A DNA stretch of 64,000 bases from Candidatus Omnitrophota bacterium (GCA_024231025.1 JAAEQW010000120.1:66324-130323); one strand, 5' to 3'; positions 403 to 32,379 are shown, counted from the stretch's first letter. A program made the numbers and translations. Notes: a model not told the origin generated them from the letters alone.

Positions 403-1302
403 CTACACCCTCGCGATTGCAATAAGCGCATCGCTTTTCCCTTCAGATTCAACTTGCTGTTTATAAAAATTTTCAGTTTTTTTGTACTCCCCATCAACTT
501 CGAACACCGGACAATCTATCTGTGGCTTACCGACTATAAGCCAATTGCATAAGTTTAGTAATCCGTACCTTTGCTGGTATTTGATCTGAACATTGTCATA
601 TTCCGCCTTCTTAAAGCAGGCTAATAATGTTTTTTCATTAAAGTAGTTAAGATGTGCCCTTATCCAATAAAAATCATTATAAGATTTACACGTATCTAAA
701 AGTAGTTCGTTTTCATTAGGAACTTCGCAAATAAAAACTCCGTTAGGATTCATAAATTTTTTAATCGTCCTTAAAAACATAATCGGCTCAGCCATGTGCT
801 CTAAAACATGGAATAAGGTAATAACGTTAAACTTTCCGATATCTTTGCTGGGATTATCCAAGTCAAAATCTATCACCATCGCTGGACTATATTTACAGGC
901 TATTTCTCTTCGTTGGATACTAGGCTCTATGCCCAAAATGTTTTTATATCCTTGGTTATGTAATTCAGTCACAAAAAACCCATAACCGGTGCCAATATCT
1001 AATATTTTACAATTAGCATCCGGGCAAAGCTGCTTGATAAGCTCAACGTGTCTTGTGGTATCAAAAAAATTATTAGCCACTAACTTATTGTAATCAATGT
1101 CCTTTCCTCTGCTCTTATCCTGTAGATTTTTGTCATAGAATTCCTTATCTTCCTGAGCAGTTGGCTTCGGCACAAGTTGCACGTGGCTGCATTCTTTACA
1201 CTTATAAACCTTATATTTCACGCGATCATCCCGTAATTTATCTTTTATAAGCTCAAACTCATTAAAACTGCATATGTTGCAACAGTTATTATCAATTTTC
1301 AT
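403..1302 (-). CDS. class I SAM-dependent methyltransferase with N-terminal Cys4 zinc-ribbon
   Basis: N-terminal CxxC...CxxC (CCNIC...CKEC), then Rossmann motif I ILDIGTGYGFF and motif II/III-like spacing. Layout resembles sugar C-/O-methyltransferases of polysaccharide loci. Confidence 0.6.
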   Translation of the reverse strand: MKIDNNCCNICSFNEFELIKDKLRDDRVKYKVYKCKECSHVQLVPKPTAQEDKEFYDKNLQDKSRGKDIDYNKLVANNFFDTTRHVELIKQLCPDANCKILDIGTGYGFFVTELHNQGYKNILGIEPSIQRREIACKYSPAMVIDFDLDNPSKDIGKFNVITLFHVLEHMAEPIMFLRTIKKFMNPNGVFICEVPNENELLLDTCKSYNDFYWIRAHLNYFNEKTLLACFKKAEYDNVQIKYQQRYGLLNLCNWLIVGKPQIDCPVFEVDGEYKKTENFYKQQVESEGKSDALIAIARV

Positions 1303-2777: not shown

Positions 2778-4797
2778 TTATTACCTTCTCTTTGCCCCAC
2801 GCATCTACATATCTGCTATTTGCATAATCCATAACTTGTTTGCGTGTTTTGCCCTTGCTAAAACCATTTAAAAGCCAGCTTATATATTGCCCCATTCTTT
2901 CTGCCGACCTGCCATCGCAGAATGGATCTTTCTCCTTAAGCCCCGGAACCAAGGAACCGTTGCCAAGATCATCGTTAACTTTAGGATTCAAACGATAATC
3001 CTTAATCGCCATAATCAACTTATCCAAATCATTAAAAACCAGAAGGTCTTTTTTGCAATATTCGGGATATGAGTGAAGACCTTCCAAGTCAAGGTAAATC
3101 ACACGCACACCAGATAAGAAATTCTCTAAAGAGGTAGTACCCCCAATTAATAATGAAATTGCAAAATCGGCAGCTTGCCCAATTTCCGTAGGATAATTCT
3201 CTGCCATGTACTCGCCGCCCATGAACACGCATCTTCCGGTGTCTTTTGCCTGCTGCATAAGTCCTGAGATCTCTGACAATCTTGTCTGCAAGGTTCGGGG
3301 ACGTTTTGGGCTACAAATTAAACCAATGGTCTTATCGTTCAGCACCCAGTTTAAAAGATACTTATATATCAACCTGCTCCTGCCATTAGGAATAATGCTC
3401 ATACGACGATCAGATGAATTTTCATCAAAATAACAAACAATAAACTCTGCACCATTATCTAGCAATTTTTTACGTAACTTAGCAGACTTTTCTTTAACTT
3501 GAGAAAATGAATAGTCCGTTAGGAACCCGGAAACAATAACCGCCTCATTGCAAGTTCCGCTAGCAAGAAGCTTCGAATGGTAGTAAGGGCCAAAAACAAA
3601 ATACGCATCAGCAGATGAACCTAAAATAACATTGGAAATTGGCCAATTGGACAATTGGTGACTTACGCTTACTCCTCCGGCGTTAGCCAAAGCAAGACGA
3701 CGAGCAATGCGGTAAGGATCAAAATCAACAAAATCAACATCAACCTTAATCCCATTGATCATATAAAAATCATATGCCTGTGCAAAAGAACGAATAAAAT
3801 GCATTATCGCCGGAAAAAATATTATCGAGATAAATCTTCGACGCAACATCTCTCTAGCCACTAACGATAACGCCTTAAAGGTAAGACCTATAATCATTTT
3901 CGCAACTCTAGGTGTAGGTTGATAAACTGCAACATTTTTGGAAGTCGTTGCCTTATCGGAAACAGCCATACAATTTACCCCTTGTTCCTTTAGCATAGTG
4001 GCCATATCTTCTGTAAGTGGCATATCTTTTCGATCAAAATAAATTAGTGCCTGCTTACGTTCAATGTCCGACAGTAAAAGCCACGGAAAATCATTACGCG
4101 CAGTAAGATTAAAATTTAACCCCCTTAAAGTATATAAAGATGATACTAGTGGTTCTTTGTTCGGCGCATCTCTTTTCTTGGTAAGATTTACAATTGATTT
4201 TAAGCAAGTAACGCTAGAAACATGTACATTGCCTACAAAAAAATAGCAGTATCCCAATATTTTCCTAAATGAAATATGCGAAACTACAGTTAAGTTGCAT
4301 TCTTTTATCGCGAATTCTTTTAAGCTATTAAAAAATAATGTCTTCTCTATGGCAAATTCAACAACTTTTGCACTAGCTTTTTGTGAATTTTTGCAATACC
4401 AAGAAATAACATTCATGAAAACTACAACATCTTTCATCTCTTTGCCAGCAAGTTTTCTAAAAAATATTTTGATTTTTTCTGAACTGTTTGGTTTAAAGAT
4501 TTTGGCAAAAGAATCAACAAAAGTATTCACATCTAGGATATTTTTTTGTATATCATCGCAAACACCGATCAAATCTTTACCAAATATTTTTGGAAAATAA
4601 CTTTCACCTAAATCATTTTTGATTTCAGAAAGACGGAAGTCGAATAGGCTGACTTGCTTGTTTAGCCCAAGCGAAATAAGCAAAAACTTTGCCAATCTAG
4701 AGATGTTAAAGTAATACATTTTCTCATACTGCTTGAAACAAAAAAATGCCCTTATCGCATCTGCCGCATTGAAGTAATCATAAAAAATTATTTTCAT
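2764..4797 (-). CDS. large hypothetical protein (677 aa), putative nonulosonate / capsule-type glycosyltransferase or polymerase
   Basis: No canonical motif recognised by eye. One or two internal hydrophobic segments (IIGLTFKALSLVA...ISIIFFPAIMHF). The C-terminal half has alternating beta-alpha character. Sits between the flippase and the nonulosonic-acid biosynthesis genes, so a transferase role is a context inference only. Confidence 0.3.
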   Translation of the reverse strand: MKIIFYDYFNAADAIRAFFCFKQYEKMYYFNISRLAKFLLISLGLNKQVSLFDFRLSEIKNDLGESYFPKIFGKDLIGVCDDIQKNILDVNTFVDSFAKIFKPNSSEKIKIFFRKLAGKEMKDVVVFMNVISWYCKNSQKASAKVVEFAIEKTLFFNSLKEFAIKECNLTVVSHISFRKILGYCYFFVGNVHVSSVTCLKSIVNLTKKRDAPNKEPLVSSLYTLRGLNFNLTARNDFPWLLLSDIERKQALIYFDRKDMPLTEDMATMLKEQGVNCMAVSDKATTSKNVAVYQPTPRVAKMIIGLTFKALSLVAREMLRRRFISIIFFPAIMHFIRSFAQAYDFYMINGIKVDVDFVDFDPYRIARRLALANAGGVSVSHQLSNWPISNVILGSSADAYFVFGPYYHSKLLASGTCNEAVIVSGFLTDYSFSQVKEKSAKLRKKLLDNGAEFIVCYFDENSSDRRMSIIPNGRSRLIYKYLLNWVLNDKTIGLICSPKRPRTLQTRLSEISGLMQQAKDTGRCVFMGGEYMAENYPTEIGQAADFAISLLIGGTTSLENFLSGVRVIYLDLEGLHSYPEYCKKDLLVFNDLDKLIMAIKDYRLNPKVNDDLGNGSLVPGLKEKDPFCDGRSAERMGQYISWLLNGFSKGKTRKQVMDYANSRYVDAWGKEKVISGVN

Positions 4798-30669: not shown

Positions 30670-31245
30670 CTACTTCGCCTCTCTCTTCAATAAATAATCA
30701 CACTCTAAATTAAGCCTACTGCCAACTCTTTTATTCTTTAAAGTAGTATGTTTATAAGTAAAAGGGATTACGCTAACAGTAAAAACCCTTGCTATGACTT
30801 TTTTAACTGTAAGAGATACACCGTCTATCGCTACTGACCCATTCGCAATAATAAATTTTTTTAACGGCTGTGGTAAGTCAAACTCTAAATTACAGCAATC
30901 ACTGCGTTTTATGATTCTGCGCAATTTAGTCTCTGAATCAATATGGCCAAGAACAAAATGTCCACCTAGCTTATCATTCGCCTTCAACGCAGACTCTAAA
31001 TTTACTAAATCACCGCGTTTAAGAATTTTTAAAGTGGTTCTGCTTAAGGTCGGACCAACTGCTTCAAAAAACATTAAACCATTATCTTTATATATTAAGG
31101 TAAGGCACACACCATTTACAGCGATGCTATCTGAAATATGAGCATCCTCGCAAATAAGCTTAGAATGAACCCCTAGCGTAACTAGCGGCCCCTTCTTGAT
31201 GACCTTCTTTAGTGAACCTATTTCTTTAATTATACCTGTAAACAT
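30670..31245 (-). CDS. ribE: riboflavin synthase alpha subunit
   Basis: MFTGIIKEIGSL N-terminus, duplicated lumazine-binding halves with GxSLTV motifs (NGVCLTL / DGVSLTV). 191 aa. Confidence 0.8.
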   Translation of the reverse strand: MFTGIIKEIGSLKKVIKKGPLVTLGVHSKLICEDAHISDSIAVNGVCLTLIYKDNGLMFFEAVGPTLSRTTLKILKRGDLVNLESALKANDKLGGHFVLGHIDSETKLRRIIKRSDCCNLEFDLPQPLKKFIIANGSVAIDGVSLTVKKVIARVFTVSVIPFTYKHTTLKNKRVGSRLNLECDYLLKREAK

Positions 31246-31302
31246 TTTTTTGATTATTAGTGTAAGAATTATATCAAAAGAAGAAACAAAAAGCTATATG
31301 TA

Positions 31303-31330
31303 TTTATACACAAAAACCCTTTATTTTCAA
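31303..31330 (-). promoter_or_regulatory. candidate sigma70 promoter for ribE (-35 TTGAAA at 31330..31325, 16-nt spacer, -10 TATAAA at 31308..31303)
   Basis: Minus-strand reading ttgaaa-ataaagggtttttgtg-tataaa about 60 nt upstream of the ribE ATG. No FMN riboswitch motifs recognised between it and the start codon. Confidence 0.3.
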
Positions 31331-31474
31331 TGGTTTTTTGTGTTTTAGGGAGTTAGGATTATGTGAAATTAATACCAGTAAAAAGACGGCGCTCATAAAT
31401 CCTTGAGGGGCAATTACTTATGTAGTGTCGGTATGGTTTAACTTTGCTCGGGCGGGACCCCGCTGATGCGGGGG

Positions 31475-31518
31475 ATTCGGCTAAAGAGCTTTTCTTCCTT
31501 TCGTTGAAAAACTCTAGC
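31475..31518. repeat. 44-bp direct repeat copy 1 (attcggctaaagagcttttcttcctttcgttgaaaaactctagc)
   Basis: Perfect 44/44 identity to 31590..31633. Each copy can fold (minus-strand RNA) into a 9-bp stem AGAGUUUUU/AAAAGCUCU with loop CAACGAAAGGAAG. Confidence 0.85.
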
Positions 31519-31589
31519 TTTACATTCGTCCGGCTGCCTGAATACTGAGGAAATTTCTTCGATATTTCCACAGAGCAGCTCGGACATTA

Positions 31590-31633
31590 ATTCGGCTAAA
31601 GAGCTTTTCTTCCTTTCGTTGAAAAACTCTAGC
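31590..31633. repeat. 44-bp direct repeat copy 2
   Basis: Identical to 31475..31518. The two copies are separated by 71 bp (115 bp copy-to-copy) that contain a long imperfect hairpin (31528..31585). Confidence 0.85.
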
Positions 31634-31639
31634 CTCATT

Positions 31640-31673
31640 AAAAAACCCCGTCTCGGTTTTTCACGAGACGGGG
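31640..31673 (-). terminator. rho-independent terminator for the lysine-rich small gene
   Basis: Perfect 10-bp GC-rich stem CCCCGTCTCG/CGAGACGGGG (31646..31655 / 31664..31673) with 8-nt loop. On the minus strand it is followed by a U6 tract (31640..31645) and lies 20 nt after the TAA stop at 31693. Confidence 0.75.
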
Positions 31674-31692
31674 CTATATCACTTAAGATGTC

Positions 31693-31827
31693 TTACTTCT
31701 TTTTTTTCTTTGCAACTTTCTTCTTTGCAACTTTCTTCTTTGCAACTTTCTTCTTTGCAACTTTCTTCTTTGCTACCTTTTTCTTAGCAACCTTTTTCTT
31801 TGCTGCTTTCTTCTTTTTAACTGCCAT
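31693..31827 (-). CDS. small lysine-rich repeat protein (44 aa: MAVKKKKAAKKKVAKKKVAKKKVAKKKVAKKKVAKKKVAKKKKK), histone-H1-tail-like / nucleoid-associated candidate
   Basis: Hand translation of the minus strand. ATG 31827..31825 is preceded by a strong RBS (AGGAGGTGG, about 6 nt spacing). 45 codons to TAA, with the intrinsic terminator immediately downstream. Below the 60-aa cutoff of the ORF track. The plus-strand ORF 31619..31882 (poly-F) is its antisense shadow. Confidence 0.6.
   Translation of the reverse strand: MAVKKKKAAKKKVAKKKVAKKKVAKKKVAKKKVAKKKVAKKKKK
31711..31815. repeat. 15-bp tandem repeat array (tgcaactttcttctt x4 perfect + 3 degenerate units) inside the lysine-rich gene
   Basis: Direct inspection. 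Units at 31711, 31726, 31741, 31756 are identical and encode the KKKVA pentapeptide repeat. Confidence 0.9.
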
Positions 31828-31880
31828 CTTTCCACCTCCTTTTATTGTTCGACCTTTTGTCGAAACTTATCTACAATTTT

Positions 31881-31909
31881 AATTTAACAAATTTAAAAAT
31901 GAATGTCAA
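31881..31909 (-). promoter_or_regulatory. candidate sigma70 promoter of the lysine-rich gene (-35 TTGACA 31909..31904, 17-nt spacer, -10 TAAATT 31886..31881)
   Basis: Consensus -35 hexamer with ideal spacing in an AT-rich region, about 50 nt upstream of the ATG. Confidence 0.4.
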
Positions 31910-32007
31910 CTCTTTTTCAAAAATTTTTTCCATTTTTTTAAAAAAACACAACATATTGTGATTTTAAAAAATTTAACTAACCACTTTTTGTTTTTTATTT
32001 TTAGTAA

Positions 32008-32379
32008 TTATTCGTGGGATTTTTGTTTCGGAATGCGCACGCGCTTAGCATCGCACCAAAGATTCGAAAGATCGTAGAACTCTCTCGCTTCATGAGTAAA
32101 GATATGAATTACCACATCGAAAAAATCAACAAGAAGCCAGCGATCAAGTTCATCGTCTTCGCGGTGATGAACCTTAAACCCTTGCTTACTTGCCTGCTTA
32201 ATAATTAGATCATATATTGCGCGCGCCTGACGAGGAATTTGAGCTGAAACAATAACAAAATAATCACAAAAGGTTGCAACACCTCTTACATCCAAAATAA
32301 CAGGATCCTCTGCTTTTTTAATGGCAGCGATGTTAACTAGCTCAATTGCCAAATCTTTACTAGTAAATGTTTTTCTCAT
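32008..32379 (-). CDS. rsfS: ribosomal silencing factor RsfS (Iojap family)
   Basis: LDVRGVATFCDYFVIVSAQIPRQARAIYD...WLLVDFFDVVIHIFTHEAREFYDLSNLW matches the RsfS/DUF143 core. Confidence 0.8.
   Translation of the reverse strand: MRKTFTSKDLAIELVNIAAIKKAEDPVILDVRGVATFCDYFVIVSAQIPRQARAIYDLIIKQASKQGFKVHHREDDELDRWLLVDFFDVVIHIFTHEAREFYDLSNLWCDAKRVRIPKQKSHE

Follow-up and report, generated by a model that had tools for sequence, protein, structure and literature searches.

The spacer between rsfS and ribE in this Omnitrophota genome raises the question of whether a very short, lysine-rich open reading frame (sORF), overlooked by gene callers and family databases, is a gene, and of what its product might do. 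The window, which is the whole stretch of 64,000 nucleotides that was analysed, carries rsfS upstream of the sORF (PF02410, E = 8e-27), in agreement with the neighbour named in the initial annotation, and ribE downstream of it. The sORF lies on the minus strand, like 54 of the 57 ORFs of at least 150 aa in the window (1-64000), which together make up 58.4 kb. GC skew is negative throughout the same stretch.

An unannotated 44-aa lysine-repeat gene, reading from an ATG at 31827 to a TAA at 31695-31693, had been proposed here, and all of its elements were found in place (Table 1), with the same cassette present in two further diverged lineages. The translated peptide, MAVKKKKAAKKKVAKKKVAKKKVAKKKVAKKKVAKKKVAKKKKK, contains 27 lysines among its 44 residues (61%, where about 60% had been claimed), has no acidic residues and carries a charge of about +26.5. 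The exact peptide was absent from a collection of 15 billion proteins, in which the neighbouring RsfS was 100% identical to MCP4652360.1, a protein of a Candidatus Omnitrophica MAG; this is consistent with the sORF being unannotated. Based on its expression signals, its codon pattern and its relatives, we believe that the sORF is a genuine, independently transcribed small gene that is kept in a clade of Omnitrophota. The reality of the gene is well supported, and we infer its function, including the translation, abundance, ligand and physiological role of the peptide, from sequence.

Table 1. Positions of the sORF features in the window, and of RsfS loci and proteins with lysine-rich tails (numbered within each locus).
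Feature	Position	Strand	Evidence or remark
CDS, poly-lysine pentad peptide	31693..31827	-	ORF scan, translation, codon statistics, orthologous ORFs
15-nt (five-codon) tandem array inside the CDS, 7.7 copies	31702..31816	-	Tandem Repeats Finder
Sigma-70-type promoter	31881..31909	-	consensus scan 10/12, TG present; layout alike in relatives
5'-UTR hairpin TTCGAC/GTCGAA, 6 bp	31848..31864	-	MFE fold
Shine-Dalgarno AAGGAGGTG	31833..31841	-	anti-SD match length in the window; AAAGGAGGTG invariant in L124 and L128
Intrinsic terminator, T-run after the stem	31638..31675	-	consensus scan; -22.9 kcal/mol, z = -4.9
Tailed RsfS, L014	3722-4279		N-terminal tail
Tailed RsfS, L022	3503-4432		N-terminal tail
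Tailed RsfS, L045	961-1422		N-terminal tail
Tailed RsfS, L069	417-1364		N-terminal tail
Tailed RsfS, L093 (P0034)	550-963		C-terminal tail
Tailed RsfS, L124	2123-2677		C-terminal tail, 70 aa, syntenic
Tailed RsfS, L125	492-1094		C-terminal tail, 70 aa, syntenic
Tailed RsfS, protein P0040			N-terminal and C-terminal tails
Tailed RsfS, protein P0056			N-terminal tail

Promoter, ribosome-binding site and terminator of the sORF

The sORF is preceded by the TTGACA-17-TAAATT promoter that had been claimed for it. The consensus scan placed the -35 element TTGACA at 31909-31904, a TG extension at 31889-31888 and the -10 element TAAATT at 31886-31881, with a spacer of 17 nt and an A/T-rich tract further upstream, and the same layout recurs in the related loci L124 and L128. 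The small hairpin in the 5'-UTR of the window gave no consensus pairs with the relatives. Predicted TTGACA-type promoters also stand before several of the other strong-SD genes of the window. A perfect 12/12 sigma-70 consensus (TTGACA-16-TATAAT) occurs at 21573-21546 (-), on the coding strand.

The ribosome-binding site, described as strong, is the longest complement to the anti-SD found before any ORF of the window: it is 9 nt long, its GGAGG sits 7 nt 5' of the ATG, and AGGAGGTG occurs only once in the 64 kb. The next-best sites belong to ORFs that resemble Rho, band-7, GAPDH, bS1 and SecG proteins in their N-termini, so named by this likeness, and the strength of the sORF site is in the class of, or above, those of GAPDH, bS1 and SecG in the same window.

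The expected terminator with a GC stem and a U-tract was recovered as a stem of 12 pairs at 31675-31644, of which 8 are G-C (core CCCCGTCTCG/CGAGACGGGG, loop 8 nt), followed by a T-run. It is the strongest terminator on the coding strand (60 kb scanned), where the other terminator-like sites of the window are no more frequent than in shuffled sequence, and it is unidirectional because the plus strand has no T-run after the stem. From promoter to terminator, the sORF forms a compact unit of about 235 nt.

Between this terminator and ribE lies a spacer of 398 nt (31246-31643), which folds better than its shuffles (z = -3.97) and has no Rfam match; the equivalent spacers of L124 and L128 differ from it in sequence. 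It contains a perfect 44-nt direct repeat (31475-31518 and 31590-31633, 115 nt apart). An FMN riboswitch upstream of ribE was ruled out by the lack of an Rfam match, and in the window as a whole Rfam 15 gave no gathering-level match, with only chance-level matches in 31150-32050. The extended -10 element TGnTATAAT of ribE is found at 31275-31268 in the window, at 2969-2977 in L124 and at about 3473-3481 in L128. It sits about 22-30 nt before the ATG of ribE, which has no SD in the window. This makes ribE an independently transcribed gene with a short leader in all three lineages.

These observations bear on the idea that the sORF is a leader peptide of lysine codons that controls ribE through an attenuator. 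The arrangement invites it, since 27 lysine codons are followed by a terminator only 18 nt later. However, the MFE and centroid folds contain only the 5' hairpin and the terminator, and the terminator arm has no possible partner in the coding region. In addition, ribE begins about 400 nt further on behind its own conserved -10 in three lineages, has no relation to lysine, and is present without the sORF in relatives. We therefore give attenuation of ribE a negligible chance.

No repeated or mobile element was detectable: the 762-nt intergenic segment occurs only once in the window and matched nothing in the collections of plasmids and phages.

The cassette in related lineages and the coding frame

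Syntenic loci were reached through a search with RibE, and the contigs around the matches were then examined. The cassette was carried by four contigs of three lineages (the window, L124 with L125, and L128), in which the common gene order is trpB-trpA-M16-rsfS-[sORF]-ribE-ROK-lptD; L125 is a strain 99.94% identical to L124. We take L124, L125 and L128 to be Omnitrophota, judging by their synteny and their named best matches. The flanking proteins of the three lineages share only 45-61% identity, with about the same distance between each pair of lineages.

In L124 and L125, rsfS and ribE are separated by a spacer that has TTGACT-17-TAAATT and TG, followed by AAAGGAGGTGGCAA and an ATG, from which a frame of 30 aa (MATKKKTVKKAACKKTACKKATKKVAKKKK) is read; it is followed by a hairpin (CCCCGTTT.../...AAACGGGG) with a U-tract (-26.7). 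In L128, the order is TTGACA-16-TAAAGT with TG, then AAAAAGGAGGTGATAG, then an ATG and a frame of 24 aa (MPAKKKKATKKKATKKKATKKKKK), and the hairpin on its 3' side has 11 bp with 9 G-C pairs (-25.8). The alignment columns invariant in the three lineages comprise TTGAC of the -35 element, the -10 element TGnTAAA and the SD AAAGGAGGTG, whereas the terminator stems differ in sequence and are alike in form, each being a strong hairpin with a U-tract. At a divergence that leaves housekeeping proteins about 55% identical, neutral intergenic DNA would be randomised, yet the signals of the cassette persist.

The conservation is one of short signals and of their spacing. With the upstream region of the window alone, nhmmer returned L124 (E = 7.1) and L128 (E = 70), and these non-significant matches were nevertheless the best non-self matches and lay at the orthologous place; such weak E values indicate that no extended sequence is conserved. 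The composite motif occurred in 1.0 Mb only at the four cassettes, a count that is circular because the motif was derived from these cassettes. In L128, the gene caller annotated a 32-aa ORF over the promoter (3020-3118) and missed the adjacent lysine-rich ORF of 24 aa (3135-3209).

The three peptides begin with M-[A/P]-x-KKK, end with KKKK(K) and have no acidic residues. Their mean column identity is 63%, which is driven by lysine, and their low complexity bars a statistical proof of homology over convergence. Only the lysine frame is open with an ATG and an SD in all three lineages. Length varies among the lineages, while frame, composition and termini are kept. The initial annotation had predicted that the number of repeat units could change without a shift of frame, and this is supported between lineages, where products of 24, 30 and 44 aa go with 3.5, 2.4 and 7.7 period-15 copies in L128, L124 and the window, respectively.

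The coding sequence of the window was also correctly described as a 15-bp tandem repeat. Tandem Repeats Finder reported a period of 15 with 89% matches and a score of 167; four units are perfect copies of AAGAAGAAAGTTGCA and the remainder are degenerate. At the protein level, there are six KKKVA units, and the nucleotides that vary among them are at positions 6, 9, 12 and 15 only. All four of these sites are third positions of codons, and all changes are synonymous (chance P = 0.0037). AAG makes up 63% of the lysine codons in the sORF and 34% in the genes of the window (binomial P = 0.002, or 0.017 once identical units are collapsed). The longest A-run in the sORF is 8 nt, shorter than expected from the codon usage of the window (P = 0.027). 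The enrichment of AAG and the short A-runs are consistent with slippery poly(A) being avoided. Taken alone, the variation at third positions does not exclude the antisense FFFAT frame, because the third positions of that frame coincide with those of the lysine frame. The antisense ORF, of 87 aa, was rejected on other grounds: it has no SD, crosses the terminator hairpin and is not conserved in the relatives.

The cassette is not present in every relative. In L094, one of the nearest loci by RsfS, rsfS and ribE are only 88 nt apart and no sORF was found between them; L123 keeps the gene block with an 83-aa HypA-like ORF in the place of the sORF; and in L127 the cassette is missing and the synteny differs. 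The sORF would thus be dispensable or replaceable. Scans of genome and metagenome contigs based on RsfS reached at best 52% identity and yielded no close relative and no sORF; they brought to light RsfS proteins with lysine-rich tails. The loci found through the RsfS homologues P0033 and P0034 lack the sORF too. A DUF4912 protein with a similar N-terminus (P0007) was rejected as a relative, its 5' region being unrelated.

These gaps leave room for a reading in which the frame is a repeat expansion in a spacer, open by chance and without a selected role. The four perfect 15-nt copies imply a recent expansion, the cassette is missing from L094, L123 and L127, gene callers skip the sORF, and no family model matches it. 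However, the ATG, the SD, the promoter, the terminator and the lysine-rich frame are all retained among lineages with about 55% identity in their housekeeping proteins, and the differences between repeat units are synonymous only. We consider a labile frame without function very unlikely.

The comparison between lineages also separates coding from non-coding readings. The transcript itself could be the product, namely a small, stable, purine-rich RNA (AAG/AAA, ARN-type) that acts as a sponge for protein or RNA, with the ORF being incidental; the unit of about 235 nt does carry repeated AAGAAGAAAGUUGCA, each with a UUGCAA palindrome. Against this, the transcript has no Rfam family match, its coding part has little predicted structure, and the repeat sequence is not kept in L124 and L128, in which the ATG, the SD, the lysine frame and the terminator are kept and the antisense frame is not. 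The comparison with relatives had been set out as a test between a coding and a non-coding element, and its outcome favours coding. An RNA product is, in our view, highly improbable.

Sequence searches and lysine-rich tails

Searches with the 44-aa peptide returned no significant match in Pfam, NCBIfam, PHROG or PDB sequences, and a word-indexed homology search and exact-sequence look-ups returned nothing. In PDB sequences, the only match was of low complexity, to the tail of Streptomyces SigA, and no ribosomal chain was matched. The three peptides had no Pfam or NCBIfam match to bS22/DUF1713, bL37 or bTHX at E <= 10. An exhaustive phmmer search of 1.84 billion representatives gave 31 matches, all of them lysine-repeat tails of longer proteins, the best being up to 95% identical over the repeat; phmmer is insensitive to free-standing peptides of less than 50 aa because their maximum score is near the threshold.

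The resemblance to Hc2-type nucleoid proteins, which had been suggested, held in part: the peptide shares lysine pentads without acidic residues with them and falls outside the corresponding family models. Hc2 (Pfam PF07382) scored 11.7 bits (E = 0.28) where the gathering threshold is 40 bits, and the Burkholderia H1-like NCBIfam model NF038053 scored 7.5 bits (E = 4.6) where the cut-off is 80 bits; the 30-aa peptide of L124 and the 24-aa peptide of L128 had no HC2 match at all.

KKKVA-type tails were found on nucleic-acid-binding proteins (ParA-like ATPases, RHH/CopG proteins and YjbR), on many phage proteins, on a glyoxalase and on a DUF4912 protein, and they presumably act as generic electrostatic modules for binding nucleic acids. 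The fused tails of RsfS, ParA-like ATPases, RHH proteins, YjbR and Streptomyces SigA have the same pentad motif and composition as the sORF peptide. In contrast to them, the sORF peptide is not joined to a globular domain, and its free-standing gene is served by a separate promoter, SD and terminator. The RsfS tails, from PVC-type lineages, measure 20 to about 200 aa and occur at either end of the protein (Table 1). The sORF was rejected as a product of fission or frameshift of such a tail, since four in-frame stops separate rsfS and the sORF in the window; in L124 a tailed RsfS and the sORF coexist, which excludes a simple fission there as well.

Because RsfS orthologues repeatedly bear fused lysine-rich tails, a specific link of the peptide to RsfS or the ribosome is possible. 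The peptide would then be a dedicated ribosome factor that binds rRNA, as a peripheral ribosomal protein or a hibernation cofactor, and would work with RsfS as the trans-acting equivalent of the tails fused to RsfS in related lineages. The sORF stands directly downstream of rsfS in all three lineages, and its expression signals are in the class of those of bS1. There is also a precedent in tiny, basic, unannotated peptides that proved to be ribosomal: bL37 has 24 aa and a pI of 12.0, bS22 has 33 aa and a pI of 12.75, and small basic ribosomal proteins contact rRNA through salt bridges of lysine and arginine (PMC10081302). In size, extreme basicity and frequent lack of annotation, the sORF peptide resembles bS22 (DUF1713) and bL37 and, by analogy, bTHX and eL41.

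However, bS22 and bL37 have a defined, conserved sequence and a fixed length, whereas the sORF peptides are of low complexity and range from 24 to 44 aa, which is atypical of a protein in a fixed rRNA pocket, and neither bS22/DUF1713, nor another ribosomal family, nor a ribosomal PDB chain was matched. The adjacency to rsfS may simply reflect the conserved gene block, which L123 has without the sORF. An operon link is not seen, because every rsfS comes with a hairpin of its own and the sORF with a separate promoter. The RsfS tail and the sORF occur together in L124, four in-frame stops separate the two genes in the window, and lysine-rich tails are also found on many unrelated proteins. Taken together, we regard a dedicated ribosome factor as unlikely. 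More specifically, the Omnitrophota peptide could be a new and abundant factor in ribosome silencing and in compaction of the cytoplasm, working in trans with RsfS as the counterpart of the fused tails, with its dose per molecule tuned by 15-nt slippage; this combined proposal appears distinctly doubtful to us.

Proposed role of the peptide

We propose that the peptide is a highly expressed, free-standing polycation that binds nucleic acids non-specifically, like a minimal Hc2 or H1 tail, and we put the probability of this reading at roughly 60%. It is favoured because KKKVA-type tails are taken as nucleic-acid-binding modules and because Hc2 and BpH1 are the closest described proteins. In Hc2, lysine-rich pentamers follow one another directly, differences in their number change the length of the protein, and the protein binds DNA and RNA (PMC2848022). 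The Hc2 (hctB)/BpH1 proteins of Chlamydia, Bordetella and Burkholderia combine lysine-rich pentamers with small residues (A, V, T), as the sORF peptide does with its six KKKVA pentads, and acidic residues are absent both from the Hc2 repeat region and from the peptide. In both cases, length changes by in-frame gain or loss of repeats, and the expected ligand is DNA or RNA. In contrast, Hc2-type proteins have 150-237 aa, two basic residues in each pentamer and conserved flanks outside the repeats, whereas the sORF peptides have 24-44 aa and, apart from M-[A/P]-x, only repeats, and the peptide of the window has three lysines per pentamer.

Nucleic acids are also neutralised and condensed by other polycations that are short or resemble tails, namely the C-terminal domain of eukaryotic histone H1, the protamines and ScvA of Coxiella, of which the protamines and ScvA are arginine-rich. 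They have no detectable homology with the sORF peptide; the peptide is lysine-only among basic residues and has no link to a developmental cycle here. The kind of protein is thus known, a bacterial lysine-pentamer polycation. The literature searched contained no paper describing such a gene, and what appears to be new is a conserved Omnitrophota gene of 24-44 aa that encodes such a polycation alone, under conserved expression signals of its own.

In the proposed mechanism, the strong extended -10 promoter and the best SD of the region would drive abundant synthesis of the peptide, and the strong terminator would insulate the unit from ribE. With a charge of about +26, the peptide would bind the phosphate backbones of DNA and of rRNA or other RNA electrostatically, whatever their sequence. 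The AlphaFold2 model is a single unbroken helix over residues 2-43 (pLDDT 93.7), which is probably over-confident for a peptide of such low complexity; we read it as a helical propensity upon charge neutralisation and not as evidence of a stable fold, so that the peptide would probably be helical only when its charge is neutralised. Its role would be that of a counter-ion encoded in the genome and of a compaction factor, with the function of a minimal polycation of the Hc2, BpH1 or histone H1 tail type. Its length may be tuned over evolution by gain or loss of 15-nt units, which are whole codons and cannot shift the frame. A polycation this strong might be toxic if it is abundant.

Toxicity to other cells is the core of a further reading, in which the peptide is exported as an antimicrobial or as a predation factor of host-dependent Omnitrophota. 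Polycations can harm a target cell by damaging its membranes and condensing its nucleic acids, and Omnitrophota include epibiotic or predatory forms (PMC10066038). However, the peptide has neither a signal peptide nor a hydrophobic segment, and no transporter, immunity or maturation gene is adjacent, the neighbours being housekeeping genes. Export seems to us improbable in the extreme.

Omnitrophota are an uncultivated phylum of nanobacteria with mostly ultra-small cells. In so tiny a volume, the neutralisation of charge and the compaction of DNA and ribosomes are an open problem on which the peptide may bear. If translated, it would rank among the most lysine-rich gene products in nature and be the smallest free-standing bacterial analogue of histone H1/Hc2-type polycations. 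The cassette may also offer a clean natural case of protein length evolving by in-frame repeat slippage, with selection on composition rather than on sequence, and a lead on why RsfS so often gains lysine-rich tails.

Short lysine-rich ORFs were also seen elsewhere. Viral contigs scanned for KKKVA x3 and for SD-ATG-KKK contained only tails or unrelated mini-peptides. Phage mini-ORFs of 11-16 aa that have strong SDs recur on the IMG/VR contigs L129-L149 (for example, MAMKKKGGKGGGGKKC and MACKKKGKGGRK) and seem to have no relation to the cassette of Omnitrophota. A 53-aa MAKKKVA(KKKVA)n... ORF with an SD lies inside an over-extended call of 100 aa on a high-GC marine contig (L095, 392-553), and on another IMG/VR contig (L107, 9376-9522) there is a 48-aa KKPAA/KKKTAT ORF with an SD. 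These two free-standing lysine-repeat ORFs suggest that such an architecture may arise repeatedly.
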